This document shows positions 7,359-47,740 of a DNA stretch of 64,000 nucleotides, in pieces. Each line of letters opens with the position of its first letter. The stretch's first letter is position 1. The position numbers and the translations under genes are program-made. The notes beneath the pieces are model-generated. The model ran no database searches and was not told the DNA's origin. It was given only the letters and a program-made list of their open reading frames with translations. Source of the DNA: Streptosporangiaceae bacterium (GTDB lineage Bacteria > Actinomycetota > Actinomycetes > Streptosporangiales > Streptosporangiaceae); contig DASQSZ010000034.1 in the NCBI GenBank assembly GCA_035642125.1, forward strand, positions 2,977 through 66,976. Reading direction: 5' to 3'.

Positions 7359-7625
7359 CGCATCCACCCGATCTCACCCCGTGAAGTTCGGCCACCCTCA
7401 GCAAGCCACGAGACCAAGCCGACGTCAAGCGGCAGCCCAATACCCGAGCGGCTCGCTGACGCCGTCACCCACGGACCGCTCGCCTCAGTGGGGATGGCCT
7501 GCTCATCTTCGGCGCGTTCGGTGCGCGCTGACCGTCGTGTGCGCGCTTCGTGCGCGCAACGCCCCGGAATGCGAAACCAGCGATCTCCGCGAAGATCGTG
7601 TCTTCGAGGAAATCGCTGGTGAGAG

Positions 7626-7715
7626 CGGAGGCTCGGGGATTTGAACCCCGGATGGGCGGTAAACCCAAACCGCATTAGCAGTGCGGCGCCATAGACCTGA
7701 CTAGGCGAAGCCTCC
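7626..7715 (-). tRNA. tRNA-Ser (anticodon GCU), type II with long variable arm
   Basis: Manual cloverleaf: acceptor GGAGGCT/AGCCTCC, anticodon stem CCGCA/TGCGG with loop CTGCTAA, variable arm, T-arm CGGGG-TTCAAAT-CCCCG, discriminator G. Confidence 0.9.
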
Positions 7716-19667: not shown

Positions 19668-20315
19668 GTGCAACTAGGTGTGGTGGTCACGCTGTCGGTA
19701 ACCGTGGCCCTGGCGATCGCGGGTTACGGAGCGACGTACGTGACGAATCTGCGTCTCGCGCGTCGCAAGGATCATCTGGATCGCGTCAATCGGCAGCTCA
19801 GTGAGCTCTACGGTCCGTTGTACGCCCAATCAGAGGCGGTTGATCGAGCATGGCGGAAGTACGTCGCCCGGTATGGGGTCGTATGGGCCTCTCCGGTGCC
19901 CGCAACCGCTGAGCAGGCCGAGACCTGGCGGTTGTGGATGTCGACGGTCTTCATGCCCCTCAACCGGCAGATGGTCGAGACGGTCGTCTCGCACGCCGAC
20001 CTCCTCCGTGAGGACACCATTCCAGAGTGTCTGAAGGAGCTTTGTGCGCACGTGGCCTGCTACGAGCCGGTGCTCGCCCGCTGGCGAGAAGACGGATTCG
20101 CCTCGACCGCATTTGAGGGTCATGTTTCGATCGCGGGGGATTTCCCACGGGCGGCGTTGGAGGCCTACGTGCAGAGCTCGTTCGAGTCGCTGAAGCGCGA
20201 GCAGGCGCACCTGATCGCACAGATACAACAGCCGCGCTCCGCACTGGCCAGGAGCGGCGATTCGGGGCGGCCACGGCGCCGCCGCGTCCGGCCGAGGCCA
20301 CCTGAACCGACATGA
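19668..20315 (+). CDS. hypothetical protein with N-terminal TM helix
   Basis: 215-aa ORF with GTG start; no recognisable motif; last chromosomal gene before the att-like site. Confidence 0.45.
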   Translation: MQLGVVVTLSVTVALAIAGYGATYVTNLRLARRKDHLDRVNRQLSELYGPLYAQSEAVDRAWRKYVARYGVVWASPVPATAEQAETWRLWMSTVFMPLNRQMVETVVSHADLLREDTIPECLKELCAHVACYEPVLARWREDGFASTAFEGHVSIAGDFPRAALEAYVQSSFESLKREQAHLIAQIQQPRSALARSGDSGRPRRRRVRPRPPEPT

Positions 20316-20423
20316 CCAGCAGCCCATGGCGGCATTCCTTGGCATCCGGCTGTCTAGCGGCCGTCAAGGCGGGTCGCACCGGGGGTCGTTTCGCCTGGCC
20401 ATAGGGCGAAATGTCGGGGTGAG

Positions 20424-20480
20424 CGGAGGGTGTGGGATTCGAACCCACGAGACCGGTCACCCGGCCTAGCGGTTTTCAAG
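20424..20480 (-). pseudogene. 3' fragment of a tRNA-Ser(UGA)-like gene; putative prophage attL core
   Basis: Minus strand reads CTTGAAA-ACCGC-(variable arm GGCCGGGTGACCGGTC)-GTGGG-TTCGAAT-CCCAC-ACCCTCC-G. This runs from anticodon loop to discriminator. No D-arm or 5' anticodon-stem strand can be folded upstream. Confidence 0.55.
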
Positions 20481-20664
20481 ACAGACTAACCACAGAACCC
20501 GGCATCCCCCCGCATCCTCCGCAATCACATTGCGGCAGGCAGGCCGCGTCCCGCCCTCCCCCGAGAGGCCCGGCCATCTCCCCGTATCCCCCGCCGTCTG
20601 CGTCCATTGTGCGACCATTGGACGCAGGCCGGGACCCTGTCCGCCCGGATATTCTGGCGACGCC

Positions 20665-21028: not shown

Positions 21029-21250
21029 CTACAGATCGAAGTCGCCGGCCTTGACCCTGCGGATCAGATCTCCCGCCTCGCGGCGTGAAAATGTCAGCTT
21101 CGGCCCGTTGAGGTTCTTAGAGTCGCGGATCCCGGCGGTGTCGTCGCCGAAGTTGGCGACCTCGACGCACTGATCGCTCTCGCCGGAGTAGCTACTCGTG
21201 CGCCAGGCAGGGCGCGCTGGATCATGATGCGGCATCAGGTACGTTTCCAT
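21029..21250 (-). CDS. DUF397 domain protein (BldB-like)
   Basis: WRTSSYSGESDQCVEVA...IRDSKNLNGPKLTFSRREAGDLIRRVKAGDFD is the classic DUF397 signature. Confidence 0.85.
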   Translation of the reverse strand: METYLMPHHDPARPAWRTSSYSGESDQCVEVANFGDDTAGIRDSKNLNGPKLTFSRREAGDLIRRVKAGDFDL

Positions 21251-21266
21251 CTCGTTGGGGGACTGG

Positions 21267-22142
21267 TCAGGTCATTGCCCGCTTGTGGCGGTCAATCATC
21301 GCGATGCTATCCGCCGGGCTTGCCGCGACTGCGATCAGTCGCTGGTATGCCACCTGGAAGCGCTCGACGTCTGTTTCCTCTTCAAGCAGGAGCTGGCCGG
21401 CGATGTTCTCGGAGTAGGCCGCATCGGGATCTTTAGGCTCCGGAAACTGCAAGATCGTGAATGGTCCGCTCAACCCTGGGTGAGCGCCGATGTCGAACGG
21501 CGCGACCTGGATCGTCACGCGCGGCAGCTCGGCGAGCTCGAGAAGTTGCTCGAGCTGGTCTCGCATGACTGCGTCGCCACCAACGTTGCGGTGGAGGACG
21601 GCCTCGTCCAGGACCGCGACGAGACGCAGCGGATCCTGCTCGCGAGTGAGTAGTTCTTGCCGCGCGGCGCGGATCAAAACCCGAGCGTCGATCTCATCGG
21701 TGCTCAGCTCGGCGGGGCCATCTCTCATGATGGCTCGGGCGTAGTCGGCGGTCTGAATCAATCCTGGGAGCATGCCGGACTGGAACGTCAGCAGGCTCGC
21801 AGCGCCGGCTTCGAGGCCCAGGTATGTCGAGTATCGCTCGCTCAGCATCTTGCGATAGGGGTGCCACCAGTCACGTTCTCGGCCCTGCCTAGCCAACATC
21901 AGCAAGTATTCGCGGCGGTCATCATCTTCGACGCTGTAGAGATCGAGCAGATCCGTTATGTCTCGTGGGCGAGGTCGTTGCCAGTGACCGCGCTCCATCC
22001 GCGCGAGCTTGCCCGGAGTCCAGTCCAGCCGGCGGTCGACGTCAACCGCCGTAAGACCGGCCGCTTCGCGGAGCATCCGGAGTTCGGCCGATAGCTGGCG
22101 GCGACGGAGCGTAGGGCTCCGCCGTGGTTCGGTTTCTGGCAT
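21267..22142 (-). CDS. XRE-family HTH regulator with DUF5753-like C-terminal domain (WhiJ/Scr1-like)
   Basis: LRRRQLSAELRMLREAAGLTAVDVDRRLDWTPGKLARMERG HTH; start ATG 22142 after GGAGGA (GTG 22196 also possible); DUF397 gene lies immediately downstream. Confidence 0.85.
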   Translation of the reverse strand: MPETEPRRSPTLRRRQLSAELRMLREAAGLTAVDVDRRLDWTPGKLARMERGHWQRPRPRDITDLLDLYSVEDDDRREYLLMLARQGRERDWWHPYRKMLSERYSTYLGLEAGAASLLTFQSGMLPGLIQTADYARAIMRDGPAELSTDEIDARVLIRAARQELLTREQDPLRLVAVLDEAVLHRNVGGDAVMRDQLEQLLELAELPRVTIQVAPFDIGAHPGLSGPFTILQFPEPKDPDAAYSENIAGQLLLEEETDVERFQVAYQRLIAVAASPADSIAMIDRHKRAMT

Positions 22143-22254
22143 GGAGTCATCCTCCACGGTCACGGTGGGTTGGGTGATCGTAGCGGATTCGGACACTGGC
22201 GGACCTTTCCGGCCTAAGTAAATTCGCCTATGGCTATTTCACCATGGCTGCGGC

Positions 22255-22635
22255 ATGCTACGGGAGTACCCCAGTCCACTGGCATGTGGCCGGTCCATCT
22301 CTCCGGCTATGACAGGGAGTGATCCCGAGATGACGCAAGATGCAGACCGCCGGGAACGGTCCAGCAGCCCACCACCGACACCAGTCGACGATCAGACCCG
22401 CCGGTTCAACGAGTACCTCGTTGAGGTCATCGAGGAGCTCACCGGTTACCACGTCCGGATGTCCCACCTCGGTTTTTGGTGCGCCGACCGCGTCAGCCCG
22501 ATCACTGAGCTGGAGGAGCAAGAAGGCGTCAAACGGACGCTTCAGTCCGTCGAACCCAAAGATCTTGTCGAGCAGATCCATGCGCAGGCGCGGATCACCC
22601 AGCGGATCGCGATGCGAGACGCCGCCCGAATCTGA
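22255..22635 (+). CDS. hypothetical protein divergent from the XRE gene
   Basis: 126-aa ORF; alternative starts at 22309 and 22330; no recognisable motif. Confidence 0.4.
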   Translation: MLREYPSPLACGRSISPAMTGSDPEMTQDADRRERSSSPPPTPVDDQTRRFNEYLVEVIEELTGYHVRMSHLGFWCADRVSPITELEEQEGVKRTLQSVEPKDLVEQIHAQARITQRIAMRDAARI

Positions 22636-22999: not shown

Positions 23000-23218
23000 A
23001 TGACCATGGGCTTCCTCAAGGACATCAAGAGCGGCCTCACCGAAGGCAACCTCACCCGCGGCGAGGTCCAGCGAGCCGCTACCAACGAGGAACGCGAGGT
23101 CCGCGCGTGCGAGGACCGCATTCGCCGCCACGGCGCCACCGAGGCCATCAACGCCAACCTCGAGCGGCACCGGGCCAGCCTGGAGAACCTCAACGGGGCT
23201 CTGCGCGACACCAAGTAA
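23000..23218 (+). CDS. small helical hypothetical protein (72 aa)
   Basis: ORF-track entry; AAGAAAGG upstream; followed by stem-loop 23228-23267. Confidence 0.45.
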   Translation: MTMGFLKDIKSGLTEGNLTRGEVQRAATNEEREVRACEDRIRRHGATEAINANLERHRASLENLNGALRDTK

Positions 23219-23227
23219 CAGACACGC

Positions 23228-23267
23228 GGCCCCGGGCGCGGTGACCTCATCACCCGGCCCAGGGGCC
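23228..23267 (+). terminator. stem-loop, copy 1 of a duplicated element (29-nt core 23226-23254)
   Basis: GGCCCCGGGC-GC-GGTGA-CCTCA-TCACC-C-GCCCAGGGGCC, 8 nt after a stop codon. Confidence 0.5.
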
Positions 23268-23307: not shown

Positions 23308-23457
23308 ATGTCCGACGACAAGAAGCAGGCGCTCAAGGCCGCCCGCGAGAACCTCGAGCACGTCGCCGCCCAAAGCACGGACGAGACCCCCGCCTACCAA
23401 AAGGCCAACAACGCCGTAATCAAGGCGGAGCAGGCCCTGCCCTGGTGGAAGCGCTGA
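23308..23457 (+). CDS. micro-ORF (49 aa), helical
   Basis: MSDDKKQALKAARENLEHVAAQSTDETPAYQKANNAVIKAEQALPWWKR; RBS GAGAAGGAAAAGGA; very high GC3; preferred over the out-of-frame 83-aa ORF 23241..23492. Confidence 0.45.
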   Translation: MSDDKKQALKAARENLEHVAAQSTDETPAYQKANNAVIKAEQALPWWKR

Positions 23458-23498: not shown

Positions 23499-23606
23499 AT
23501 GGCACAGATCAACAACATCACGATCACAGGGCAGGACACCGACACACGAATCGGCGAAGTCACCAACGGTGACCTCGTCCTGACCACGGACAAGGGCGGG
23601 AAGTAG
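23499..23606 (+). CDS. micro-ORF (35 aa)
   Basis: MAQINNITITGQDTDTRIGEVTNGDLVLTTDKGGK; RBS AGGAAGGA; high GC3. Confidence 0.35.
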   Translation: MAQINNITITGQDTDTRIGEVTNGDLVLTTDKGGK

Positions 23607-23609
23607 CCC

Positions 23610-23744
23610 ATGGCGGTCTACGTCAATGGCGTCAAGGTCTCCGACGGCGACCAATACGCGGCCGGCAACCAGGTAGGCGGGCGTGTCATCCGGAACGGCG
23701 AAGAGGTCCGGCAAGACGCCGATCCCGGCCCGGCGCCGCAGTAG
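23610..23744 (+). CDS. micro-ORF (44 aa)
   Basis: MAVYVNGVKVSDGDQYAAGNQVGGRVIRNGEEVRQDADPGPAPQ; starts 3 nt after the previous stop; high GC3. Confidence 0.35.
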   Translation: MAVYVNGVKVSDGDQYAAGNQVGGRVIRNGEEVRQDADPGPAPQ

Positions 23745-23767
23745 CAATCAGCACCCCGAACTCAAGC

Positions 23768-23805
23768 GGCCCCGGGCGCGGTGACCTCATCACCAGCCCG
23801 GGGCC
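23768..23805 (+). terminator. stem-loop, copy 2 of the duplicated element (29-nt core 23766-23794)
   Basis: GGCCCCGGGC...GCCCGGGGCC perfect 10-bp outer stem; the 29-nt core is identical to 23226-23254. Confidence 0.5.
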
Positions 23806-23835: not shown

Positions 23836-24069
23836 ATGGACGACTCTATGAGCGCCGGATGGCTCACCGCCACCATCTCCCTGCCGACCGTGGCCGTCCT
23901 CGCCCTCATCGCGGGCGGTGCGGTAGCGCTGGCCTCCCTCGGCTGGCAGACGTGGCGGTGCAGCCGCCGGCACGCCGACATCGACGACACCGAGCCCACC
24001 GCGTGGGACGACCAGCCCCCGGCCACCACGGCCACCCCCGACCATGACGCCGCCCGGGCGGCGAGCTGA
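23836..24069 (+). CDS. small membrane protein (77 aa)
   Basis: One TM helix (LTATISLPTVAVLALIAGGAVALASL); first gene of the transfer-like block. Confidence 0.45.
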   Translation: MDDSMSAGWLTATISLPTVAVLALIAGGAVALASLGWQTWRCSRRHADIDDTEPTAWDDQPPATTATPDHDAARAAS

Positions 24070-24089
24070 CAACCCGGGAGACCACCCCC

Positions 24090-24878
24090 ATGACGCAGCA
24101 CGCAACGCGGCCCACATCCGCCCAGATCGCCGGAGCGGCCTGCCTCGGCCTCCTTGTCACCGGCATCATCGTCGTCGCCTTCCGCGGTTCGTGGGGAGCG
24201 CTCCGCGACGCCGCGCTCGCCGCGCATTTCGACCGCAACGCCGCCGGCCTCTACCCGTTCGCCGTGGACGGTCTCCTCGTCGTCGCGATCGTCGCTGCCG
24301 TTTTGCTTCGCCACGACCGTGGAGCACGGCGCTACTGCCTCGGCATCATCGGCGGCTACACCGTCGCGTCCTGGCTAATCAACTTCCTTCACGGGCTGGG
24401 GATGTTCCTGGCCGACCCGGCCACCGGCAAGCGGCCCGTACCACCGTGGCCCGTGGTCGTGGTGATCGCGACACTGGTGATCGCGTCGATTTTTTTGGGG
24501 TCTCACCTGCTGGTTTTCGTGTGGCGACATCTGTACCCCACCACGGGGGCCAGGCCCGAGGCGGCCGAGGTGTCGCAGGGCGCAACGCCCGCGTCGCAAG
24601 ACGCAACGCCGCGTGTTGAGCTGCCACCGACCAACCTCGAGCTGGCTAAGGCCGCCTTCCGGGAGAGCCTGGCCCCCGACCGCCAACGGCTGTCACAAAG
24701 AGCCCTAGTGGAACGGTATGGAATCAAGGCGCGACAGGCCGCGAAGGTCCAAGACGAGGTGAATCGCGAGCTGACCGCCGAGCACGCCGCACCGAGCTCC
24801 ACCGAGGCCACCGACGTCGCGGCGCAGCACACCCCGAACGGACGCGTCGACATCCGTGACGGGGCCGGTGGCCGCTGA
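24090..24878 (+). CDS. DUF2637-like membrane protein with C-terminal HTH
   Basis: 4 TM helices (AGAACLGLLVTGIIVVAF..., LYPFAVDGLLVVAIVAAVLL...) and RLSQRALVERYGIKARQAAKV; family typically precedes TraB-like genes in actinomycete elements. Confidence 0.75.
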   Translation: MTQHATRPTSAQIAGAACLGLLVTGIIVVAFRGSWGALRDAALAAHFDRNAAGLYPFAVDGLLVVAIVAAVLLRHDRGARRYCLGIIGGYTVASWLINFLHGLGMFLADPATGKRPVPPWPVVVVIATLVIASIFLGSHLLVFVWRHLYPTTGARPEAAEVSQGATPASQDATPRVELPPTNLELAKAAFRESLAPDRQRLSQRALVERYGIKARQAAKVQDEVNRELTAEHAAPSSTEATDVAAQHTPNGRVDIRDGAGGR

Positions 24879-27091
24879 TGGCACAACGCGGCGGCGACAA
24901 GCGGCGGAAGGGAAAACCGCCGCCGCTGCGCTACGCCCGCCCCGGGGACCCCACCACCCGCCTGTACGCCCTGCCCGACCCCGACGACATGCCCGCCGCC
25001 CTCCTCGAGGACGCCGAAGACATCGTCGAGCTCCAGCCCGAAGTCGTCGAGCCCGTCCCCGTCGACACCCCCAAACCGGCGGTGGCCGGATGGCTGACCG
25101 AACGTCAGGGACGGCTCGCCGACGCGCCCCGCATCACCCCGTCGTGGATGCGCAGCCGCGCCGAGCTCGCCTCCAACGCCCTGTTCATCGGCCGGTGGTA
25201 CGGGCACGTGTGGGGCTACTACGGCCTGCGCACCCCCGTCTATGCGGCCAGGCTGTGGATCCGGGCACCCAAGGGCGCGGCACGCATCACCGGCTGCTGG
25301 TACCGGTGGGTGATCGACGCCGAGGCCAGGCCCGCCGTGTCCAAAGCTGCCGCGGGTGAGACCGCGCAGTGGATCGCGGCGGCGACCACGCAGACCAACC
25401 GCACCAACAGCCGCCGCAAAGCGTCCCTGTGGGTCGGTGTGCCGGTCGTGTGGCTGGTGTGGGTCGCCGCGCACGTCCTGCCCGCCGCGGCCTGGGCCGC
25501 CATCGCGGCCGCGGTGCTGTCCGGGCTGGGCTGGGCCGGCAGGCAGACCGATCGGCCGATCGTGCACCGCTACGTCGCCGTCCGCATGCAGCGGCGCCTC
25601 GAATCCGCCGAGGTCGAGACGGCACTGGAGGCGATCGGCGTCAAGGGCCGGGTGGACTGGATCAATCCGATCGCCGTGGATGGACCCGGCTGGCTCGCCG
25701 AGCTGGACCTGCCCGGCGCGGCCCTGGCCGATGAGGTGCTGGAGAAGCGTCCGCAGCTCGCGGCGGCGATGCGCCGGCCGCTGGGCTGCGTGTGGCCGGA
25801 GAACGACAAGGCGGCTCATCCTGGCCGGCTGCGGTTGTGGGTGGCGCGTGAGGACCCGGCGAAGGCGAAGCGGCGGCTCTGGCCGCTGATGTACGAGGGG
25901 CAGGCCGATCTGTGGAAGCCGAGCCCGTTCGGGTTCGACCCGCGTGGCCGGCTCGTCGAGGTCGAGCTGATCGGCACGAACTGGCTGATCGGCGGCGTGA
26001 TGGGGTCCGGGAAGACCTCGGCGGTGCTGACACTCGCGCTGCTCGCCGCCCTAATGCCGACCGCTGAGCTGCACATCTACGAACTGAAGGGGTCCGGTGA
26101 CCTGCAAGCAGTCGAGGACGTCGCCCGCGTGTACGTCTCCGGCGACGACGACGAGGACTGCGAGGCCGCGCTCAACGGGATGCGGTGGCTGAAGAAGGAA
26201 CTCAAACGCCGCAAAGACATCGTCAAAGCGCTTCCCCTCTCGGACGTCCCGAACGGCCGGAAGGTGTCCGCCGCGCTGGCAGCGCGCCGTGAGCTGGGCC
26301 TGCACCCGATCGTCGCGATCTTCGACGAGGTACACACCCTGTTCGAGCACGACGAGTACGGGCCGCCCGCCGCGAAAGACGGTGCCGACCTGATCCGCAA
26401 GGCCCGCGCGTACGGGATCATCCTGATCCTCACCACGCAGCGGCCCGACAAGAACTCCGTCCCGAAGCCGATCAGCGACAACGCGATCCTGCGGTTCTGC
26501 CTCGCGGTCACCGGGCACCTGGCGAACAACCTGATCCTGGGCACCGGCGCGTACGCGCGTGGTGTACGGGCGACGATGTTCGACCCGCAGCACGACGCAG
26601 GCACCGGCTGGCTGGCCCGGTCCGCGTTGAACGCGCAGATCGTGCGGGCCGCATTCATCACTCAAGCCGAGGCGCACGCCATCGGGCAGCGCGCCAAGGC
26701 GCTGCGGATCGCCGCCGGGACGATGCCCGAGCAGCGAGGGCTGGAGTCCGTCGAGCCCGATGAGGACATCCGGGACCACCTGCGCGCGGTGTGGCCGGCG
26801 GGTGAGGACACGATGCATTCGCACAAGCTCGTCGAGGCGCTGGCCGCCTACCGCCCGGACGAGTACGGGCCGTGGATCGCCACGGACGTGCCCGAGTCGG
26901 AGATGGACGAGGCGGCGCTTCGGGAGCTGCGGACGTTGCGGTCGACGATGCTCGCGACGGCGGTCAAGCCGTTCGGGATCCAGACGCGGCAGATCAATAA
27001 GCGGGGCGCGGGAGGGTCCGCGAAGGGTCTTCGCTTCGTCGACATTGAGGCCGCCGAACGGGCCGACGAGCCCGAGTTGGAGGACGCCTGA
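24878..27091 (+). CDS. FtsK/SpoIIIE-family dsDNA translocase, TraB/TraSA-like
   Basis: 737 aa; two N-terminal TM helices; Walker A GGVMGSGKTS; Walker B IVAIFDEVHTLF; ILILTTQRPD; ATG overlaps the upstream stop (TGATG). Confidence 0.9.
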   Translation: MAQRGGDKRRKGKPPPLRYARPGDPTTRLYALPDPDDMPAALLEDAEDIVELQPEVVEPVPVDTPKPAVAGWLTERQGRLADAPRITPSWMRSRAELASNALFIGRWYGHVWGYYGLRTPVYAARLWIRAPKGAARITGCWYRWVIDAEARPAVSKAAAGETAQWIAAATTQTNRTNSRRKASLWVGVPVVWLVWVAAHVLPAAAWAAIAAAVLSGLGWAGRQTDRPIVHRYVAVRMQRRLESAEVETALEAIGVKGRVDWINPIAVDGPGWLAELDLPGAALADEVLEKRPQLAAAMRRPLGCVWPENDKAAHPGRLRLWVAREDPAKAKRRLWPLMYEGQADLWKPSPFGFDPRGRLVEVELIGTNWLIGGVMGSGKTSAVLTLALLAALMPTAELHIYELKGSGDLQAVEDVARVYVSGDDDEDCEAALNGMRWLKKELKRRKDIVKALPLSDVPNGRKVSAALAARRELGLHPIVAIFDEVHTLFEHDEYGPPAAKDGADLIRKARAYGIILILTTQRPDKNSVPKPISDNAILRFCLAVTGHLANNLILGTGAYARGVRATMFDPQHDAGTGWLARSALNAQIVRAAFITQAEAHAIGQRAKALRIAAGTMPEQRGLESVEPDEDIRDHLRAVWPAGEDTMHSHKLVEALAAYRPDEYGPWIATDVPESEMDEAALRELRTLRSTMLATAVKPFGIQTRQINKRGAGGSAKGLRFVDIEAAERADEPELEDA

Positions 27092-27092
27092 T

Positions 27093-27190
27093 GGTTTCGA
27101 TCAAGGCGAAACCGGTTTCGGGGGTGGTATCGGCTAAACCCGCTTCTGACCTGCGTGGTTTCTGGTTTCGAGGGTCCGCCCCGGACCTCG
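27093..27190. repeat. GGTTTCG heptamer array incl. 14-bp palindrome CGAAACCGGTTTCG; clt-like candidate
   Basis: Copies at 27093, 27114, 27157 (GGTTTCT) and 27164; palindrome 27107-27120; GGTCCG/CGGACC inverted repeat 27173-27187; low GC3 argues against coding. Confidence 0.5.
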
Positions 27191-27285
27191 GATTTCCCCT
27201 GTCTGGAGGGATTTGGATGTCTGCGCTCAACGTACTCAGCAAGTTCCCCAACCGGCTGCGCGGCGTCTACGACGAGGGCTGAGCG

Positions 27286-27468
27286 ATGTGGTCCTCGATC
27301 CGGCGCGCGGTCGACCGGGGAGTCGGGTGGCTGACCCGCACCGGCTGGTACATCCAGGTATTCGGCGACCGGCGGGCCGCCGAGGAGACCGCCTCCCTGG
27401 CAGGCGGGTGGGTCATCGCCGGCAGGCGGACGCTGTGCCCCCGCTGCGCGAGGGGGGCCGGGCTGTGA
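27286..27468 (+). CDS. small hypothetical protein (60 aa, CPRC motif)
   Basis: ORF-track entry; stop overlaps the next start (GTGA). Confidence 0.4.
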   Translation: MWSSIRRAVDRGVGWLTRTGWYIQVFGDRRAAEETASLAGGWVIAGRRTLCPRCARGAGL

Positions 27469-27614
27469 TCCTCTCGGCCCACGTCTTCGAGCCCTCGGCC
27501 GCCGTCGGCGGCCTGCTGTTCGCCGCTTTCATCGTGCTGTCCCTCATCGCGTTGCGGCGGCCGAGCCGCTGCGGTCATTGCGGCCGCTGCCGGTCCTGCG
27601 GCCGGCACCGGTAG
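27465..27614 (+). CDS. small membrane protein (49 aa) with Cys-rich tail
   Basis: VILSAHVFEPSAAVGGLLFAAFIVLSLIALRRPSRCGHCGRCRSCGRHR; GTG overlaps the upstream TGA. Confidence 0.35.
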   Translation: MILSAHVFEPSAAVGGLLFAAFIVLSLIALRRPSRCGHCGRCRSCGRHR

Positions 27615-27648
27615 CGCCCACTCCAACACCTCTGAGAAAGGAAAGGTC

Positions 27649-27873
27649 GTGAAACATGCCGACAACATCGTCATCGTCAAGCGGTACCGAACCGCGGGCG
27701 GCGGCGTCACCCTCGTCCACCGACACCCCGGATGGTGGCGGCGCTATACCTGGTGGTGCCCGTGCGGGCAGCCACGGTCACGACGGCGGATGGCCCGGCG
27801 GATGGCGCTCGCCCGCGCCTACAACCACGCCGTGGGGTGCGACACAACACCGTCCGGGGCGGTGACCCGATGA
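27649..27873 (+). CDS. small hypothetical protein (74 aa)
   Basis: GTG after GAGAAAGGAAAGG; Trp/Arg-rich with CPC. Confidence 0.45.
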   Translation: MKHADNIVIVKRYRTAGGGVTLVHRHPGWWRRYTWWCPCGQPRSRRRMARRMALARAYNHAVGCDTTPSGAVTR

Positions 27874-28493
27874 CCGCCTTCACACCCCGGCCGCCCGACG
27901 GCGCCAGCCCCGAGATGTATCGCAAGGCGTACGAACTCGTCATCGACGCCGTCGAGAAAATCCGCGGCCGCGCCACCAAGGCTGGGCTCGCCGCCGTCGA
28001 AGCCAACAAAGAAGGCAACATGGTGCACGGCGTGTTCGAGTCCGCGCGAGAAAACGCCCACCGCATCGACGCGGACCTGGTCATCGAAGCATTGGTCGAC
28101 GCGTTCGAGTTGTGGGAAGACTACGCCGCGGCGTCCGCTGAGGAGGCCCCGGCCACAGCCTTCCTCGGCCCCATGCCCGTCGCGCACACCAGGAACCATG
28201 TACACAAGGCGATCTACGTCCTCAACGCCTCGGCCGCTCGCCTCACCCACGACCAGCAGGCCCTGCTGGGGATCGATGTGCCGGTCGAGCTGGAGCAGCT
28301 GAGTCTGATGTGCTCTCATCCGGATGTGTGGGGGCCGGATGGGCTGGTTCGGGCCGGGCAGGCGGTCGTCCAGGCGATGACGCTCAAGCCCGAGGACGCA
28401 CCGGAGTCCGTGGCCTCGGTGATGGGTGATGTGCTGCGGCTGCGGGCGTACCTGCGTGCGCTGGACGCGGCCCACCTGAAGGCTCAATCGTGA
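27870..28493 (+). CDS. hypothetical protein (207 aa)
   Basis: ATG 27870 overlaps the upstream stop (ATGA); part of ORF 27732..28493. Confidence 0.55.
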   Translation: MTAFTPRPPDGASPEMYRKAYELVIDAVEKIRGRATKAGLAAVEANKEGNMVHGVFESARENAHRIDADLVIEALVDAFELWEDYAAASAEEAPATAFLGPMPVAHTRNHVHKAIYVLNASAARLTHDQQALLGIDVPVELEQLSLMCSHPDVWGPDGLVRAGQAVVQAMTLKPEDAPESVASVMGDVLRLRAYLRALDAAHLKAQS

Positions 28494-28753
28494 CCGGGCT
28501 GGTCGGGCGGAGTGACGTAGGTGCCACGCTGCGGCACCGTGTACACCCACCCCTGATCCCGCATCCACGCCACCGCCCGCCGCGCCGTGGTGCGGGCGAC
28601 GCCGAACTCTTGGACCATCTCCTGCTCGCTGGGGATGCGGCGCCGGGGCGGCAGTTCGCCGGCCAGGATCCGCTGCCGGATGATGTCGGCGATTTGCTGG
28701 TACACCGGCTGGTCGGAGTCATGATCCACGGTCACGGCGGTCACCGTAACCAC
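28484..28753 (-). CDS. GntR-family wHTH regulator, DNA-binding domain only (KorSA-like)
   Basis: PVYQQIADIIRQRILAGELPPRRRIPSEQEMVQEFGVARTTARRAVAWMRDQGWVYTVPQRGTYV. Confidence 0.85.
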   Translation of the reverse strand: MVTVTAVTVDHDSDQPVYQQIADIIRQRILAGELPPRRRIPSEQEMVQEFGVARTTARRAVAWMRDQGWVYTVPQRGTYVTPPDQPGHD

Positions 28754-28964
28754 GGAGGATCGTAGATCTACATTGGTATACGTAGGTAGACGTATATAGA
28801 CGTCTGGTCTTACCGTCGGAGGTCAGGCCGCCCGCCCGGTCAGGTGGGGTGGTCAGGTCGGGCGGGCGCGCCGGCTGGCTGGGATCGAGGCCGGCGCGTC
28901 CGCTTCCGAATACGCGGGCGTCATCGAGGACCGTCGAGAGCCCCGAGCCAGCCGAGGAGCGGTC
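28754..28964. promoter_or_regulatory. divergent control region with palindromes and GGTCAGG repeats
   Basis: GTAGATCTAC (28762-28771); TAGACGT x2 with AGACGTCT palindrome (28786-28805); GGTCAGG at 28821, 28838 and 28851; local AT-rich stretch. Confidence 0.45.
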
Positions 28965-29207
28965 GTGACGGAGCAGCCCACGAGTGAGCAGGCCACCGCG
29001 CCGCTATGTCCTCGTTGCAACTCCCCAAGGTGGGTGTCCGTGTCGCTCGACGGAGGCTGGACAAGGCGAGCGCAGTGCGTCCCGTGCGGCGCCCTACACG
29101 AGCCCGTCATCGGGCCCGGTTTCCTGTCCAGGAAGTACGGCGACCCCGAGGCCGAGCATCCCGCTTACCGCACCAAGCAGGCAAAGGTCACCGAGGACAC
29201 GCCGTGA
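28965..29207 (+). CDS. small Zn-ribbon protein (80 aa)
   Basis: CPRCNSPRW...CVPCG; GTG after AGGAGCGG. Confidence 0.45.
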   Translation: MTEQPTSEQATAPLCPRCNSPRWVSVSLDGGWTRRAQCVPCGALHEPVIGPGFLSRKYGDPEAEHPAYRTKQAKVTEDTP

Positions 29208-29533
29208 GCGACGCAATGGACGACCTGCGGTTCGCGCTTCAGATCATCAAGGACTCGGAGCGAACGATCTTCTGCTCGCCAGAGTACGAATCCCGCATCA
29301 AGACCATGGTCGGCGACCTCGGCATCGGCGACATCACCACCGTTGTTGCGGACCGGGCCATGCCCGACGACAAGTTGTTCATGGTGGACGTCAACGCCAT
29401 GGACGCGGCGAACCACGAGGCCCTCCTGCGCGAGCTGAACAAGCCGATGCGGATCGAGTGGCTCGCGCCCCAGTGGCCGCCGCTGCCGTACACGACGGAT
29501 CCCCGACACATCTTCCGCATCACCGGCTGCTGA
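29204..29533 (+). CDS. hypothetical protein (109 aa)
   Basis: GTG overlaps the upstream TGA; part of ORF 29006..29533. Confidence 0.5.
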   Translation: MSDAMDDLRFALQIIKDSERTIFCSPEYESRIKTMVGDLGIGDITTVVADRAMPDDKLFMVDVNAMDAANHEALLRELNKPMRIEWLAPQWPPLPYTTDPRHIFRITGC

Positions 29534-29573: not shown

Positions 29574-29604
29574 GGCCCGCTCTCCCCGTGGAAGAGAGCG
29601 GGCC
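29574..29604. terminator. bidirectional stem-loop terminator between convergent arms
   Basis: 11-bp stem GGCCCGCTCTC/GAGAGCGGGCC with 9-nt loop; flanked by AAAAGAA, which gives a U-tract for the minus-strand lysis operon. Confidence 0.6.
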
Positions 29605-29652: not shown

Positions 29653-30000
29653 CTACATCCGCACCGGCGGGGCCACCTTCGCGGCCGGGGTGACGTTCTG
29701 CCTCAACAGCAGCGCCAACACAATGCTCACTGCGGCCACCGTCGCGCCGATCTGATCCGCCGACAGATCCAACCCGAACGCTGCCACAGCCGCCAGCGCG
29801 GTACCCACCGCGCCGGTGATGGCCGGCACCACGACCGGGCGGGTCGTCGCGGCTGTCCAGACGGTGACGAAGGCGGTGGCCAGGGTGGTGAGGGCGCCGG
29901 TCATGTCCGCCGTGAGGGGCAGGCCGTAGGCCACGAGCAGCGCCACCGCCACGTTGACCGCGTACACCACCACGGCCGGTTCGAACTTGAGGTGATTCAT
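29653..30000 (-). CDS. holin-like membrane protein
   Basis: 115 aa with 3-4 TM helices; last gene of the lysis cassette; start MNHLKFEP after AAAGGAGG. Confidence 0.55.
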   Translation of the reverse strand: MNHLKFEPAVVVYAVNVAVALLVAYGLPLTADMTGALTTLATAFVTVWTAATTRPVVVPAITGAVGTALAAVAAFGLDLSADQIGATVAAVSIVLALLLRQNVTPAAKVAPPVRM

Positions 30001-30060
30001 CGCAGACCTCCTTTGGCATGCGACAGGGCGCCGCACACGCGAGCGCCACGAATAGGGGGG

Positions 30061-30399: not shown

Positions 30400-31194
30400 T
30401 CAGTCCTCCTTTGCCGCGAGTAGCGCCTTGACCTCGGCGAGCTCGGCCCTGACGTCGGCCGCCAACTGGTCGACCTTCTTGTCCACCACGATCAGACCCT
30501 GGATGGTTTGCTTGCGCACCGAGTCGCGGCCCCACGTGGGGTTCTTGGCCGGGTCGAACCCAGGGTTGCCGTCCGGGTCGAACCCGTCGGCCGGGTTGCT
30601 GCCCGGCGCGGGGACGGCGTCGGCCGTCATGACCTTCTCGGCCTCTTCTCGAACGATCTTCCTCAGCTGTGCCTCGGTGAATGGCATGTCGTCCTCCTGC
30701 TTGGACGGTCTCGGCGCGCCCTTGCGGACCCACACATACAGCGGGCCGCCCGGGCACGAGGTGGAATGGAAGTCACGGTGACCCTTGATGCCCCGACCGG
30801 CGCCGCGGGCCCGCATGTAATCGATGGCGTCCCGCACCGCGGCGAGCAGCGCGGGCGGGATGATGGTGTCGCCGTCGCCGACCAAGGCGCACACGGCGTA
30901 CCAGTACTGGTTGCCGGAGTTGGTGCCCTGTGCGGCCGAGCGGTGGCCGAGCCCGCGGCCCTCGAACACATAGCCGTGATGGCAGACCAGGAAGTTGTAG
31001 GCGATGGCCGCCCACCCGTTGCCGCCCACGTGCTGGGATTCGATGCTCCGCACGCGGGCCGCGCACTTGGAGTGCGGGATGGTGGCGAGCCTCCCGACGC
31101 CGACGTAGTGCACGGCGACGCCGCCGGACGGGGTGATGTTCGTTGGGCCCTTGCCGTACCGGGCGCCCCACGCGGCGTGGGTGATCAGCTTCAC
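30400..31194 (-). CDS. N-acetylmuramoyl-L-alanine amidase (PGRP/Amidase_2) endolysin
   Basis: GVAVHYVG, AIAYNFLVCHHGYVFEGRG and HRDFHSTSCPG motifs; C-terminal ~90 aa are low-complexity plus coiled coil rather than a known wall-binding domain; GTG start. Confidence 0.9.
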   Translation of the reverse strand: MKLITHAAWGARYGKGPTNITPSGGVAVHYVGVGRLATIPHSKCAARVRSIESQHVGGNGWAAIAYNFLVCHHGYVFEGRGLGHRSAAQGTNSGNQYWYAVCALVGDGDTIIPPALLAAVRDAIDYMRARGAGRGIKGHRDFHSTSCPGGPLYVWVRKGAPRPSKQEDDMPFTEAQLRKIVREEAEKVMTADAVPAPGSNPADGFDPDGNPGFDPAKNPTWGRDSVRKQTIQGLIVVDKKVDQLAADVRAELAEVKALLAAKED

Positions 31195-34045: not shown

Positions 34046-37000
34046 TCACACCAGCCCTATGTATGCAGGGTCGGCGACCTGCACCGACGACCCGGACGGA
34101 ATCGTCTTCACAACCCCATTCAGGGGCGTCTGCGTGACGGTGAACGTCTGCGGGCTCGTCGCGCCGGACACGGCGGTGACCTCGAGGACCACCCCGGCGA
34201 CCCGGATCCGGAAAGGGAAGTCGCCGGGATGGTCGGCCGAGTTGATCGCGACGGGGCCCGAGGTGGTCGCGACCGTCAGCCCCCATGCCGGGGTGAGCGC
34301 GATCGCCCACGTCGCGGTCTGCCCGGTGGCCTGGGAGGCGGTCAGCGTCCGGGTCGCGGCGCCGGGGTTGAGCCGCCGGCCGGAGTCGTAGACGGCGTGG
34401 GAGATGTCGAATCCGGAGCCGGCGTTGCTGCCCTGGTCGACCCGCTCCCCATCGGATGTGTCGCTGCTGGTCCAGGTGGTGGCCGCGCCGGTGAAGGCGT
34501 GCCGCTCAAACGCCGAGGTGATAAGGAACCCGGCCGGGTCGCCCACGGTGGCCGCCGCGGCGAAACCTGTGCCCGGTGTGGCGGTCCCGTCGGAGTCGAA
34601 GTCGTCGATCGGGTCGGTGGTGTAGACGCCGGAGTAGGCGCCGATCCACCCCGAGTTTTTGAACGAACTCGTCCACGACCAGTTGTAGGAGGCGGGCTCG
34701 GACGAGGCCACCCGCCAGTACGCGGCGGTGCGGACGTTCGCGCCGGCGTCCTGCGTGCCGATCAGGGTCCACCCGGCCGGGGCCGTGATCGTCTCCTGCC
34801 CGATGATGCCGATGACCGTGACCAGCAGGTGCCCGTCGGCGGTGCCGGCCGGGACGTTGACGGTGACCGAGGTGGTGCCGGCGCTGTTCAGCGTCGCCGC
34901 GTCGTCGACGAACGCGATGGTGTGGCTGTCGGCGGTGGTTTCCGCGGTGGTGGCGCCCACCCGTTTCACCTGGTCGTCGGCGGTCGCCCACTGCCACGGC
35001 GCCTCCGGCACGCAGGTCAACGTCATGGTGTGGGTGAACTGGTCGATTCGTTCGGTGTAGCCGCGCACGATCACCGAGATGTCGTCCGGCGGCAGATAGT
35101 CGGGCAGGTCGGTGATCACCACCCGGTCGCCGATGTCCATCGCCAGGATCGAGGCGAGCAAGTCCAGGTCGGCCGCGATCGACGGGTGATGCAGGTTGAT
35201 GACGATCTGCGGGTAGCGGGCGCCGTCGACCGTGCCGAGCAGCAGCCGGAACCCGGCCTGATCGGCGACCTGCTGATCGTAGGCAACCGAGATCGTTTTC
35301 TCGTCCGGGTAGCGGCCGACCCCACCGAGCCGTGGCCGCAGGTTCGACAGCTTTCCCGACGTCTTCGACTTGTACGCCTTGATCCCACGGTCGCGGATGA
35401 CGTACTGCTCGTTGACGGTCAGCCGGTCATCGTCGACCGGGCGGAGGGTTTCGGCGAGCTCGTGCGCGGCGTGCGACAAGGTGAACGCCGGGTCCTGGTT
35501 AGCCATCGACAGGCGGGTCCGGTACCGCAGGGCGAACCGGTCGCGGGACTCGGCGAGCAGCCCCAGGTCGGTGGTTTCGACCTCGGTGAGCAGCTCCGTC
35601 TCGGTCTTGATCGTCTGGTCGCCCATCACCACCGAGTTGCCGGTGATCTTCGCCTTGTCCGCGGCGATGTCGATGGGGATCTGGTCCTCGCCGCCCAGCC
35701 GCAACAACCTGGTGGCGGGGTTCTCGCCGTTGAAGGCGTTGACCGCATCCCCCACATCGTCGAGCCGCACCGTGGTGCGGTCGGACACGCAGATGTGGCC
35801 GATCACCACCTGAGCGAGGCCGCCCTCTCTGCCGACCGTGACCGAGGTGATCGTGTTGAACGTCTTCGTGGTGATCGTGCCGGACAGGTAGGACGCGGTG
35901 ATGCCGGTGCCGGTCGCCAGATCAGTGTTGGTGAAGTCGTTGATCGCCAAGAACCACTTGATCGACGTGCCGGACTGCAACAAGTGCAGCCCGAGCATCA
36001 AGAACCCGCGCGGGTTGAGGTCGAAGTTGAGTTCCGCGTCCAAGTTGCCGGCGCCGTCGTCGATCGCCACGCCGTCGTCGTCGTACGCCTTCAACCGCAG
36101 ATTGCCGTTCGCCAGCAGCCTGATGTCGAAGGTCTTCGCCGTGCCTGACGTCGTGACATGCAGCAGCGACGTCTCCGCCGCCACGGCCTCATCGACGAAA
36201 CAGAACATGTAGGCCGATGCGCTGCCGGTCGGCGTCCAACTGGGGACGCGGCCGTAGAACGACGCGCCGGTCATCACCGGCAACGCGTCGGAGCCGGTCC
36301 ACTCCGAGTAGGAGGCCAGCTGCGGTGTGCCGCTGATCCGCATCGGGAACCCCGCCACCTGGGTGGCGTTGGAGGCGATCTCGGTGGCCTCCGCGCCCAC
36401 CTCACACGACCAGTACGCCTTCACCCTGGTCAGGGACGGGTGGGTGTGGGCGCGGAACATCGCCGAGTTGACGGGCTGTTCGTTCTGCGACAGGCGCCGC
36501 CAGATCCCGGCCGCCTCGATCGTGACCGTGACGAAGTTGCCGGTGACATCGGAGACGACCGGCCATTCGGACACCTCGCCGTGGAACCGGAACGGCCCGG
36601 TGACCTGCTCGACGAACTGGGCCGCGCCGGCCAGCTGCCAGGTGTTCCCCGCCGAATCGTCGAAGGAGTCGGTTTCCTCGTCCTGCTCGGTAAATTCGGG
36701 TCTCGCGCGGATCGTGCCGCCGATCCCCTGCCGCAGCACGAACCGGTACCACTTCCCGGCCATCGGCGCGTTCCCGGAGGTGGGGATGTCGCCGAGCACC
36801 ACATCAGAGTCGGAGTCGAAAATGCTGGTGGTGCCGGAGCCTGTGACGGTGGCGCCGAGCTGCTGCCAGGGCCCGTCGCTCAACTGGTCGGAGTTCGCGG
36901 AGATGTAGAAGCGGGTGTCGTTGCCCGCCGCGCCGTTGTTCACGTCGAACGTGATTTTGATGGCGAGCCGTTCACCGTCGGCCGCCGGCACCGGGATCGT

Positions 37001-40976: not shown

Positions 40977-41414
40977 CTATCCCTTCTGGATTCGGTCGGC
41001 AATGGCCTGCTGGTGAAGGGCGAAGTCCTCAACCCAGTCCGCTGGCCGCTGGTGGGCACGGATCAGGCCGAGGTTCCGCCGCCAGTCACCGGCCCGGACG
41101 GAAAAGAAATTCGGGATCGTGCGGTGCTCGCCGAAACAGCGCTGGCCGCTGTCGAACCGGAACACGGTGACGCCGGCCTCAGTGCGGCGCTCGGAGAAGG
41201 TGCGGCCCGAACGTTGCCGGATGTAGGCGGCCTGCCCTCGGCCGAGGGGGGTGGATTCGTCGATGTGGGATTCCCAGCCGAGCCGGTACGCCTCGCAGCC
41301 GACCATCTGGCAGGCGCCCTTGATGAGAGTGTCCTTGCCGAACAAGATCCGGTAGCTCTTGTACTGGTGCACCTCGCCGTGCGGCTGCACCCGGAACACC
41401 GGCGGATAGATCAT
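40977..41414 (-). CDS. hypothetical Cys-containing protein (145 aa) inside the tail module
   Basis: MIYPPVFRVQPHGEVHQYKSY...CQMVGCEAY...GQRCFGEHRT; ATGA overlap upstream; GC slightly lower than flanks. Confidence 0.5.
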   Translation of the reverse strand: MIYPPVFRVQPHGEVHQYKSYRILFGKDTLIKGACQMVGCEAYRLGWESHIDESTPLGRGQAAYIRQRSGRTFSERRTEAGVTVFRFDSGQRCFGEHRTIPNFFSVRAGDWRRNLGLIRAHQRPADWVEDFALHQQAIADRIQKG

Positions 41415-47727: not shown

Positions 47728-47740
47728 TGGGTTGCCTCCT

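Follow-up and report, generated by a model that had tools for sequence, protein, structure and literature searches.

The locus analysed here raises the question of whether the plus-strand gene arm at 23.8-29.5 kb is a conjugative DNA-transfer module, and whether it belongs to the tailed prophage beside it or to a second element. The window, meaning the whole 64-kb stretch of DNA that was analysed, comes from a Streptosporangiaceae MAG and not from Streptomyces. The original prediction, made from the sequence alone, had assigned the arm a Tra/Spd/Kor/clt layout and regarded arm and prophage as one composite element. The features on which the analysis draws are collected in Table 1.

Table 1. 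Features of the arm and its surroundings (window coordinates)
Feature	Position	Strand	Basis or details
attR core, left end of the prophage	20423-20482	-	60-bp 3' fragment of tRNA-Ser(TGA)
DUF397 gene	21029-21250	-	Pfam; divergent from tra arm
HTH_31/DUF5753 regulator gene	21267-22196	-	Pfam; divergent from tra arm
Leader genes	22309-22635, 23000-23218, 23308-23457, 23499-23606, 23610-23744	+	Codon-bias gene calls
Small single-pass membrane protein, 77 aa	23836-24069	+	One predicted TM helix, hydrophobic residues 7-38
DUF2637 polytopic membrane protein, 262 aa	24090-24878	+	Pfam DUF2637, E 4.3e-9
Predicted TraB-type membrane-anchored FtsK/SpoIIIE dsDNA translocase, 737 aa	24878-27091	+	Pfam FtsK_SpoIIIE, E 2.5e-8
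clt-like cis element	27093-27215		Palindrome CGAAACCGGTTTCG at 27107-27120, flanking GGTTTCG half-sites, GGTATCGG and CTGACCTGC boxes
Variable small genes coupled by overlaps	27286-27468, 27465-27614, 27649-27873, 27870-28493	+	Direct sequence reading
GntR-family regulator, wHTH only, 89 aa	28484-28753	-	Pfam GntR, E 5.7e-17
Divergent control region	28754-28964		Nested palindromes GTAGATCTAC, GTATAC, AGACGTCT (inverted repeats I2, I7, I9)
Two small genes divergent from the GntR gene	28965-29207, 29204-29533	+	Gene calls and sequence
Hairpin terminator, arm/lysis cassette boundary	29574-29604		14-bp stem, 10 G-C pairs
Siphophage late and early genes	29653-64000	-	PHROG matches

The prophage backbone was recognised by PHROG matches to holin, endolysin, tail proteins, tape measure, major tail, capsid, protease, portal, TerL and RusA genes, and the arm is convergent with the holin and endolysin genes. 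A DUF3987 phage replication protein (57348-58613) clusters with proteins of two other Tra loci, L070 (AICE-type) and L086. The prophage runs on for ~17.2 kb past the window with cro/cI-like genes, the integrase and attL (L116, L124). The 60-bp core at its left end shows 100% identity with the 3'-terminal 60 nt of an intact tRNA-Ser(TGA) (L124/L125), which lies ~17 kb past the window at the attL end and adjoins the sole integrase, of the tyrosine type. Exactly two copies of this core are present, 60.7 kb apart, with no third in the ~60.7-kb prophage; within the 64-kb window the left-end copy is the only one and, as had been noted originally, none lies at the 29.5-kb boundary. Because the att pair is perfect over 60 bp, a single tyrosine integrase stands beside the intact tRNA gene and a third core is absent, the arm at 23.8-29.5 kb belongs integrally to a single temperate siphophage of ~60.7 kb that is inserted in tRNA-Ser(TGA). 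The same reading is supported by pPaSha2, a 41.9-kb circular element of Pseudonocardia that joins terminase, portal, capsid, holin and integrase genes with a small TM-DUF2637-FtsK block on one circle. A pair of tandem elements, an AICE spanning 20.5-29.5 kb followed by a prophage that starts at 29.6 kb, is extremely unlikely: it would suit the strand switch at 29.5 kb and the strong terminator there (a terminator had been described at this boundary, and a terminator-like hairpin was found), but no int or rep gene occurs in 20.5-29.5 kb, as originally described, and int, xis, rep and att are all lacking from the arm and its edges. The two-copy count and spacing of the core also argue against tandem elements, as do homologous layouts on pPaSha2 and on 35-50 kb viral contigs.

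The central gene of the arm encodes, as predicted, an FtsK/SpoIIIE ATPase with GSGKT at residue 376, IFDEVH at residue 481 and a TM region at residues 182-218. In BLASTP it matches pSVH1 TraB (31% over 390 aa, E 2e-32), one of 50-64 plasmid matches, and along its full length it shares 60% identity with the Tra proteins of the AICEs at L013 and L022. These are classical tRNA-bounded GntR-SpdB2-Tra-PrimPol-Xis-Int elements with an SpdB2 homolog upstream of Tra. Foldseek matched the protein to the FtsK motor (E ~1e-14 over ~400 columns), and in the Tra tree phage and AICE contexts are interleaved, with the window clade sister to an AICE clade. No relative of the window ATPase was found among 50,697 phage records. 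FtsK-like translocases of isolated actinobacteriophages (Streptomyces phage Gilgamesh gp10 and those of Mycobacterium phages Omega, Thibault and LittleE) are also FtsK-type P-loop motors of actinomycete phages, and their function is not known (bioRxiv 10.1101/2024.02.16.580700); they lie outside the Tra clade, the window protein matches none of them, and a class A Tra query matches them at 24-28% identity over the motor domain only (E 5e-12 to 3e-4). Since there are plasmid but no phage matches, an FtsK motor fold, 60% identity to AICE Tra and an interleaved tree, the ATPase is, by sequence comparison, a member of the AICE-type Tra clade, in line with the TraB-type assignment made originally. 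Its C-terminal domain was modelled with a pLDDT of 89 and gave no significant structural match, only weak winged-helix ones (E >=0.25); it may bind DNA.

The predicted heptamer-repeat array lies directly 3' of this gene. GGTTTCG/CGAAACC occurs four times in 27093-27170 and 16 times elsewhere in the 64 kb, and the total of 20 was reached in 0 of 100 shuffles. Across 107 loci, 259 copies of the motif fall within the first 100 bp past the Tra stop codon. In 80 loci a single exact copy of the 14-bp palindrome CGAAACCGGTTTCG, with half-sites, stands 3' of the Tra gene. AICEs and prophages alike have it, in either orientation, and the genes beyond it differ: AICEs have PrimPol there, class A prophages have HNH-terminase, and the window has small ORFs. 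More distant Tra clades and subclades have different repeats at the equivalent 3' position, and the scan of Tra 3' ends also recovered the pSVH1 repeat GACCCGGA. As clt regions contain direct repeats of 8 bp that the cognate TraB recognises (PMC4447253), and because the array directly follows the Tra gene in 80 loci regardless of neighbours and the pSVH1 repeat was recovered by the same scan, the array is read from sequence as a family-wide cis element at the clt position and a candidate for clt function. The motif tracks the protein clade, and shared ancestry alone could account for part of this covariation.

The arm begins with the expected small TM protein, which has a homolog at the equivalent position in L005, and the expected DUF2637-like membrane protein, which has 3-4 hydrophobic helices. 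Nearly all Tra loci have a membrane-protein gene upstream of Tra, at a distance of 0-4 genes, and the DUF2637 protein occupies the slot of plasmid SpdB2. The codon-bias calls of the leader genes match public gene calls on identical contigs; none of the five has a family match, and a 49-aa leader gene is common to the window, L005 and L006. The divergent DUF397 and HTH_31/DUF5753 pair also flanks the module in L005, L006, L015 and L018, and the HTH/DUF5753 cluster is present in 21 loci. Beyond the array, five tiny ORFs with GTGA/ATGA overlaps had been proposed: the overlaps were read in the sequence (GTGA at 27465, ATGA at 27870), but the count was revised to three tiny ORFs and one of 207 aa (27870-28493), the ORF at 27091-27282 on the array being probably noncoding. 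The product of 27465-27614 combines a TM segment with CxxCxxCxxC; the small genes have no homologs in L005 or L006 and no family match. The convergent wHTH-only GntR gene was found as described, followed by the palindrome-rich control region, which is AT-richer than its surroundings, and two small genes (an 80-aa CxxC...CxxC protein and a 109-aa protein, neither with a family match). In 22 loci, pSVH1 included, Tra and GntR genes are neighbours; the window's GntR gene is found at the operon's 3' end, whereas its pSVH1 counterpart is divergent from tra. Of the proposed Tra/Spd/Kor/clt context, Tra and an element at the clt position stand; 'Spd' denotes position only, homology not being demonstrable, and 'KorSA-like' a GntR domain match and nothing further, with a Kor role as a candidate.

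The hybrid had been called unusual, but prophages are the predominant context of the window's Tra clade. Among 80 species-level genome loci, 37 adjoin structural or lysis genes of phages, and AICEs account for 11; all hosts of Tra loci are mycelial actinomycetes. The class A prophages (n=38) have the module within the early operon, flanked by the replication genes and HNH-terminase and sharing their strand.

We consider it fairly probable that the arm is an AICE-type conjugative dsDNA-transfer module integral to the siphophage and transfers phage DNA. It combines a TraB-family translocase with membrane proteins and with a recognition site of clt-like type. The phage integrase would excise the genome as a circle; membrane-anchored TraB hexamers would bind the palindrome and half-site array beside their own gene through the C-terminal domain, and the FtsK-type motor would drive the phage genome, as double-stranded DNA, through cross-walls or hyphal membranes. 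The phage could in this way reach neighbouring compartments or contacting mycelia with no need of virions or receptors, and in the recipient its genome would integrate or replicate with the phage's own functions. The operon would probably be repressed by the GntR protein and the XRE/DUF397 pair. We infer the transfer itself from the genes present, and likewise when the arm is expressed and what the DUF2637 protein, the small ORFs and the regulators do. Several observations count against this reading: this Tra occurs in 0/50,697 deposited phage genomes, the model of the C-terminal domain lacks a significant structural match, the DUF2637 protein is not demonstrably SpdB2, the GntR gene is placed 3' and not divergently, its palindromes had no copy ahead of the tra operon, and the motif may follow the Tra clade in part through shared ancestry.

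The mechanism could be the same and yet internal to the phage, TraB and the membrane proteins shifting replicating phage DNA through cross-walls or into spores of one mycelium, with no intermycelial mating, and extending lytic or lysogenic infection across compartments. The class A arrangement suggests expression during lytic development, SpdB2 homologues on actinophages have been proposed to aid the spreading of phage DNA (Thoma et al. 2015, PMC4447253), and DUF2637 proteins occur in 15 isolated Streptomyces phages without a Tra gene. We nevertheless regard this as rather unlikely: the window's module is set apart from the early genes with regulators of its own, plasmid and AICE members of the Tra family drive both intermycelial transfer and spreading (PMC4447253), and no sequence feature separates the two roles. 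It is quite improbable that the arm is passive cargo of no use to the phage, an AICE fragment acquired by recombination or a remnant of tandem integration. All ORFs are intact, dN/dS of the Tra gene is ~0.3 (vs L005 and L006), at least 57 prophage loci, which span several genera and two unrelated architectures, retain gene and cis element jointly, and the present prophage has no internal att copy or second integrase; these points are set against an att-adjacent location typical of accessory genes, small ORFs 3' of the Tra gene that are unconserved even in close relatives, and the AICE clade that is sister to the window clade.

Very improbable, too, is a reading in which the array is not clt but a replication origin (iterons), a terminator or an operator of a neighbouring small HTH protein, and the ATPase acts at the membrane in some other way, for instance in defence or superinfection exclusion. 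The AICE array does sit between tra and the PrimPol replication gene, GGTTTCG could pair with CGAAACC in a hairpin, and PADLOC reported FtsK-domain matches to mad8 and SspH. However, the array remains with the Tra gene where replication genes lie at a distance of 6-30 kb or, as with DUF3987 in the window, belong to a different type, its sequence is invariant rather than covarying and found in either orientation, the class A HTH protein is missing from the window and L013, and the PADLOC matches cover the ATPase domain only, with the partner genes of both systems absent.

Among known systems, the preferred reading of a transfer module places the arm beside pSVH1 TraB and the Tra/KilA proteins of Streptomyces plasmids (Reuther 2006; Vogelmann 2011; Thoma 2015, PMC4447253), with which it shares a membrane-anchored FtsK/SpoIIIE motor with Walker A/B and an additional C-terminal domain, a repeat array at the 3' end of the gene or immediately past it, an upstream polytopic membrane protein gene, a nearby GntR gene and small overlapping ORFs. 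It differs in its carrier (a 60.7-kb tailed prophage instead of a plasmid), its motif (GGTTTCG around a 14-bp palindrome instead of GACCCGGA direct repeats), its upstream membrane protein (DUF2637 instead of a demonstrable SpdB2) and its GntR protein, which is truncated and encoded 3' of the operon. Prim-Pol/RepAM AICEs (Ghinet 2011, PMC3218068; te Poele 2008, PMC2440964), such as L013 and L022, have the Tra clade and palindrome element in common with the window, the L013 Tra likewise being 737 aa, and integrate into tRNA genes by a tyrosine integrase as the prophage does; they are 9-24 kb in size and without capsid, tail, terminase and lysis genes, whereas the prophage has such genes and its int and rep are those of the phage backbone, 30-55 kb from tra. 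FtsK/KOPS and SpoIIIE/SRS share the motor fold, and by analogy the reading of a short DNA motif by the C-terminal domain would be common to them and the window protein; they are chromosome translocases with skewed motif copies dispersed chromosome-wide, in contrast to one local array beside a gene on a mobile element. The closest precedent, and the sole experimental one found, is the Streptomyces plasmid-phage pZL12/phiZL12, for which tailed virions and conjugal transfer by one element are reported (Zhong 2010, J Bacteriol 192:3747, as cited in PMC3583192 and PMC5431353). According to these citing accounts pZL12 is a 90-kb extrachromosomal ParAB plasmid-prophage, whereas the prophage of the window is integrated; tblastn of record GQ919031 with either Tra query gave no match, so the pZL12 tra locus lies outside the window's Tra family.

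Like the tailed prophage of the window, dozens of other prophages bear a plasmid-type DNA pump together with its putative recognition site, and all of them may also spread from cell to cell without particles.

The window was found to consist of high-GC actinomycete DNA, matched by soil-metagenome contigs at 99.98-100% identity. Siphophage genes were identified by PHROG matches between 29.6 and 64 kb, all on the minus strand, and include genes for tail proteins and a protease in addition to those listed in the table below. The arm carrying the Tra gene lies on the plus strand and is convergent with the holin gene, with a hairpin of 14-bp stem (29574-29604) between them. The att core, a 3' fragment of tRNA-Ser(TGA), occurs once in the window, and no second copy was found within the 64 kb, in agreement with the original prediction for the 29.5-kb boundary. 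A DNA pattern scan of metagenomes for the far prophage end recovered a 2.2-kb contig alone; the end was found on the same metagenome contig by protein search and contig look-up. Approximately 17.2 kb past the window end lies an intact tRNA-Ser(TGA), with a 410-aa tyrosine integrase at 290 bp, followed by a small gene, a repressor-like gene of HTH_31 type, a cro-like HTH_3 gene in divergent orientation, and the early genes. The 60-bp att core is 100% identical at both prophage ends and present in exactly two copies, and the unit of ~60.7 kb between them holds the phage genes and the arm together with one integrase. Locating the partner att site and the integrase beyond the window thus delimited one element, and the att pair and single integrase support the predicted single composite element over two tandem ones. 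Within this unit the gene set of a temperate tailed phage (a Caudoviricetes prophage by gene content) is complete: integrase, att pair, cI/cro-like switch, TerL, portal, protease, capsid, tail and lysis genes.

Features of the composite prophage located in the window
Feature	Position	Strand	Basis or remark
att core, tRNA-Ser(TGA) 3' fragment	20423-20482		one copy in window
Tra ATPase, 737 aa	24878-27091	plus	Pfam PF01580
Holin	29653-30036	minus	PHROG match
Amidase endolysin	30400-31194	minus	PHROG match
Tape measure	38138-39937	minus	PHROG match
Major tail	41414-42160	minus	PHROG match
Capsid	46339-47958	minus	PHROG match
Portal, 898 aa	48715-51411	minus	PHROG match
TerL	52511-53899	minus	PHROG match
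RusA	63252-63791	minus	PHROG match

Several further features of the prophage and its flank were recorded. In the early region past the window (14862-17676 of L124, the contig continuing the prophage), an N6/N4 DNA methyltransferase and a PAPS-reductase-like protein are encoded just upstream of RusA. The C-terminal region of the portal (aa ~432-612) matches PHROG families annotated as RNA ligase; L005, one of the closest relatives of the arm, carries a T4-type RNA ligase and PNKP as separate genes. A 1194-aa tail protein (34046-37630, minus strand) contains a phosphodiesterase-like region (phrog_24476) and, judged from its sequence, may be an enzyme degrading a wall polymer; pZL12.40c, adjoining the tail genes of pZL12, is annotated as a glycerophosphoryl diester phosphodiesterase. 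On the host side of the attR core, between it and a host Metallophos gene, a 215-aa ORF of weak codon bias (19668-20315, plus strand) was assigned to no family and had no homolog among the fetched loci. A complete tRNA-Ser(GCT) in the host flank (7625-7715, minus strand) was rejected as kin of the att core, the common stretch being only 26 nt at 85% identity.

The predicted FtsK/SpoIIIE ATPase was recovered as described (PF01580, E 2.5e-8), with GSGKT at residue 376 and IFDEVH at residue 481. Residues 182-218 are hydrophobic, were modelled as two helices and are predicted to form a membrane anchor N-terminal of the motor. [quoted passage not shown] An AlphaFold model of Tra (pLDDT 81) was matched by Foldseek to the FtsK motor structures 6T8O and 2IUT over ~400 columns (E ~1e-14), with TcpA, the coupling protein of pCW3, as second-best match. 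The C-terminal domain was modelled at pLDDT 89 as helices and a beta-hairpin, and its top Foldseek matches were winged-helix domains, none significant (E >= 0.25). Full-length family members number in the hundreds, at 50-80% identity, and every one comes from a mycelial actinomycete; dN/dS between Tra and its two closest homologs is ~0.3.

The original prediction had cautioned that FtsK-like genes are annotated in some actinobacteriophages. The FtsK-like proteins that isolated actinophages encode (Gilgamesh, Mycobacterium cluster J) reach just 24-28% identity to a class A Tra, over the motor domain only, which speaks to this caveat. With tblastn, no relatives of Tra were found in 50,697 phage records, and 50-64 plasmid records, depending on the E-value limit, contained one; most are small Streptomyces plasmids, pSVH1 among them. 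DNA from 19.5 to 31.5 kb gave no megablast match to phages. The comparison that had been proposed places the ATPase as a TraB relative. An assignment to a known anti-phage defence system was suggested by PADLOC ATPase-domain matches to mad8 and SspH and was rejected, as partner genes are not present. On its motor, its kinship, its predicted anchor and the repeats 3' of its gene, the window ATPase is classed as a putative TraB/Tra translocase.

The heptamer array predicted after the ATPase gene was confirmed as four copies of GGTTTCG/CGAAACC in 78 bp directly after the Tra stop. Across 107 non-redundant loci, 259 copies of this heptamer fall in the first 100 bp past the Tra stop, against a background of 0.036 per 400 bp. 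An exact 14-bp palindrome, CGAAACCGGTTTCG, has a single copy in the window (27107-27120) and occurs once per locus in 80 loci, each time directly 3' of Tra. It lies within a conserved element of ~90 bp that also contains additional half-sites and two boxes, GrTATCGG and CTGACCTGC. The offset of this element from Tra varies and it occurs in either orientation relative to the gene, which marks it as a DNA element and not a peptide; the 63-aa ORF at 27091-27282, which coincides with it, is probably not a gene, given both orientations and variable stop offsets. The next gene past the element is PrimPol in AICEs, an HNH-terminase gene in class A and a small ORF in the window, and this constancy beside Tra, whatever gene follows, argues against a replication origin or a cos/pac site. 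Tra members at <=48% motor identity in no case carry the CGAAACCGGTTTCG element; at the same position distant members have other 7-8-mers (CGCTAGC, CCGCAAG, CCGGTAGC, GCTATCGA and AGGGAGGC). As a control, an identical scan recovered the known pSVH1 repeat GACCCGGA in 5-6 copies. The TraB-clt logic, clt being the repeat site recognised by TraB, is known from Streptomyces plasmids (PMC4447253, PMC3583192), and the element matches it as subclade-specific clustered repeats at or beside the 3' end of the gene. Of the 11 GGTTTCG copies that the phage region (34.5-63.8 kb) carries beyond the array, 10 are on the plus strand; the five in the host flank (5.9-16.6 kb) all lie on the minus strand. This skew could reflect codon bias or KOPS-like polarity.

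To define the contexts of the family, 80 loci of species-representative genomes were collected together with 27 IMG/VR loci, genes were called with a codon model, proteins were clustered and cluster identities were checked against PHROGs. Alignment-based scans were needed to find loci, single-protein scans having returned one viral locus and no genome loci. Class A (38 non-redundant loci, mostly Streptomyces) has all genes on one strand, in the order integrase, PrimPol, SSB or helicase, DUF2637, small TM proteins, MerR/Xis-like HTH and Tra, followed by a phage module (HNH, TerS, TerL, portal, protease, capsid). In class B (19 loci, including the window), DUF2637 and Tra run convergently to the genes for endolysin and tail proteins. 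Relatives of class A or B occur in cultivable strains such as S. scabiei ATCC 49173 and S. cellulosae NRRL B-2687. The 12 class C loci, L013 among them, are laid out as classical AICEs: GntR and small genes, then a large membrane protein, Tra, PrimPol or RepAM, Xis and Int. Six of them were checked for a tRNA gene, and each has one no more than ~0.3 kb from the integrase. Phage and AICE contexts are interleaved in a neighbour-joining Tra tree, where the sister group of the window clade is an AICE clade. The Tra clade lives mainly in prophages: 37 of the 80 genome loci adjoin phage structural or lysis genes and 11 are AICEs, with 19 undetermined and 13 too short to classify. The early region of class A loci (for example L044 1-21008 and L104) was seen to have the content of a Prim-Pol AICE (Int, PrimPol, SSB, DUF2637, Tra, palindrome) and to be joined directly to the HNH-TerS-TerL-portal-capsid module; the lengths of IMG/VR contigs with this arrangement cluster around 41-43 kb.

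Other predicted components of the arm were present: a 77-aa protein with one predicted membrane pass, a 262-aa DUF2637 protein with 3-4 predicted TM helices, an 89-aa GntR wHTH protein on the opposite strand, and a palindrome-rich divergent region with two further small genes. For the tiny coupled ORFs the GTGA and ATGA overlaps held, and the first of the series fell away as probably noncoding. The proposed Spd identity of the DUF2637 protein was unsupported, as no homology to pSVH1 SpdB2 was found (BLASTP E 0.069; hhalign probability 12%); in the sister AICE L013, by contrast, hhalign identifies the membrane protein upstream of Tra as an SpdB2 homolog (97%, E 4e-11). By its place in the arm, the DUF2637 protein is best regarded as a positional analogue of SpdB2 only. 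Fifteen isolated Streptomyces phages without a Tra gene encode proteins that match class A DUF2637 proteins at 39-42%, consistent with the passage of Thoma et al. (2015; PMC4447253) that SpdB2 homologues on actinophages might assist phage DNA spreading. The GntR protein, a candidate repressor of Kor/TraR type, has no effector domain and is encoded at the 3' end of the tra operon. No operator copy of its palindromes was found upstream of the tra genes, and its half-site GTAKAC (25 copies versus 15.8 expected) is not clearly enriched and is absent upstream of the operon. The arm's small ORFs had no families in NCBIfam or PHROGs, and those 3' of Tra show no conservation, even among the nearest relatives. 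An HTH_31/DUF5753 and DUF397 regulator pair (window 21029-22196, minus strand) adjoins the Tra module in many loci, L005, L006, L015 and L018 among them; the HTH/DUF5753 cluster is present in 21 loci. In L005 an HATPase_c_2 protein accompanies the pair. This pair might link the Tra module to host development. Two copies of a 37-nt GC-rich inverted repeat (23223-23259 and 23763-23799; 92% identical; GGCCCCGGGC...GCCCGGGGCC, ~18-nt loop), each directly following one of the arm's small leader genes, may act as attenuators or be bound by a protein.

Two known kinds of element were weighed as classes for the whole. An AICE carries Int, Rep and Tra on an att-bounded element of ~9-24 kb without virion genes; the window element shares an att pair, an integrase and Tra, but at 60.7 kb, with terminase, portal, capsid, tail and lysis genes, it was rejected as an AICE. 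The 90-kb plasmid-phage pZL12 is, in the literature consulted, the sole element reported to both conjugate and form virions (PMC3583192, PMC5431353). It is maintained extrachromosomally (ParAB, RepA) and has its own tra locus, whereas the window element is integrated with an att pair, and the pZL12 record (GQ919031) gave no match to either Tra query; a pZL12-type phage-plasmid was therefore also rejected. Support for the single composite element comes from pPaSha2 of Pseudonocardia alni, a 41.9-kb circle on which terminase, portal, protease, capsid, holin and integrase genes accompany a small-TM/DUF2637/FtsK block. It was rejected as a relative of the window phage, with which it has the Tra gene alone in common, the phage genes being unrelated, and it counts as a separate, independent phage-Tra association. 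The AICE reviews consulted contain no account of a tailed prophage with a Tra gene, and a full-text search returned no literature joining AICE, prophage, terminase and Streptomyces.

The analysis confirms the original observation and supports its reading as a single composite element. The three strongest new results are the att pair around 60.7 kb, the family-wide palindrome tied to Tra and the occurrence of the Tra clade mainly in prophages. From homology and anatomy we infer, with a modest lean in its favor, that the Tra arm would move the phage genome as dsDNA, independently of virions, between hyphal compartments or between mycelia. A broader proposal, which we hold tentatively and at slightly under even weight, is that mycelial actinomycetes harbor a widespread, undescribed dual-mode class of temperate tailed phages that also move as naked dsDNA via a TraB-clt motor, the module having been exchanged repeatedly with AICEs; given such exchange, AICEs may be phage early regions plus Tra, or the reverse. 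The exact palindrome and single Tra gene make the idea directly testable. Phage propagation inside mycelia is an acknowledged open question (PMC11302927). If the proposal is true, a virion- and receptor-independent route would change views of host range, of resistance and of how lysogens spread in Streptomyces and other multicellular bacteria, the boundary between phage and conjugative element would be blurred within a single genome, a concrete hypothesis for the origin of AICEs would be at hand, and a prophage group common in genomes and absent from plaque-based phage collections would be explained.
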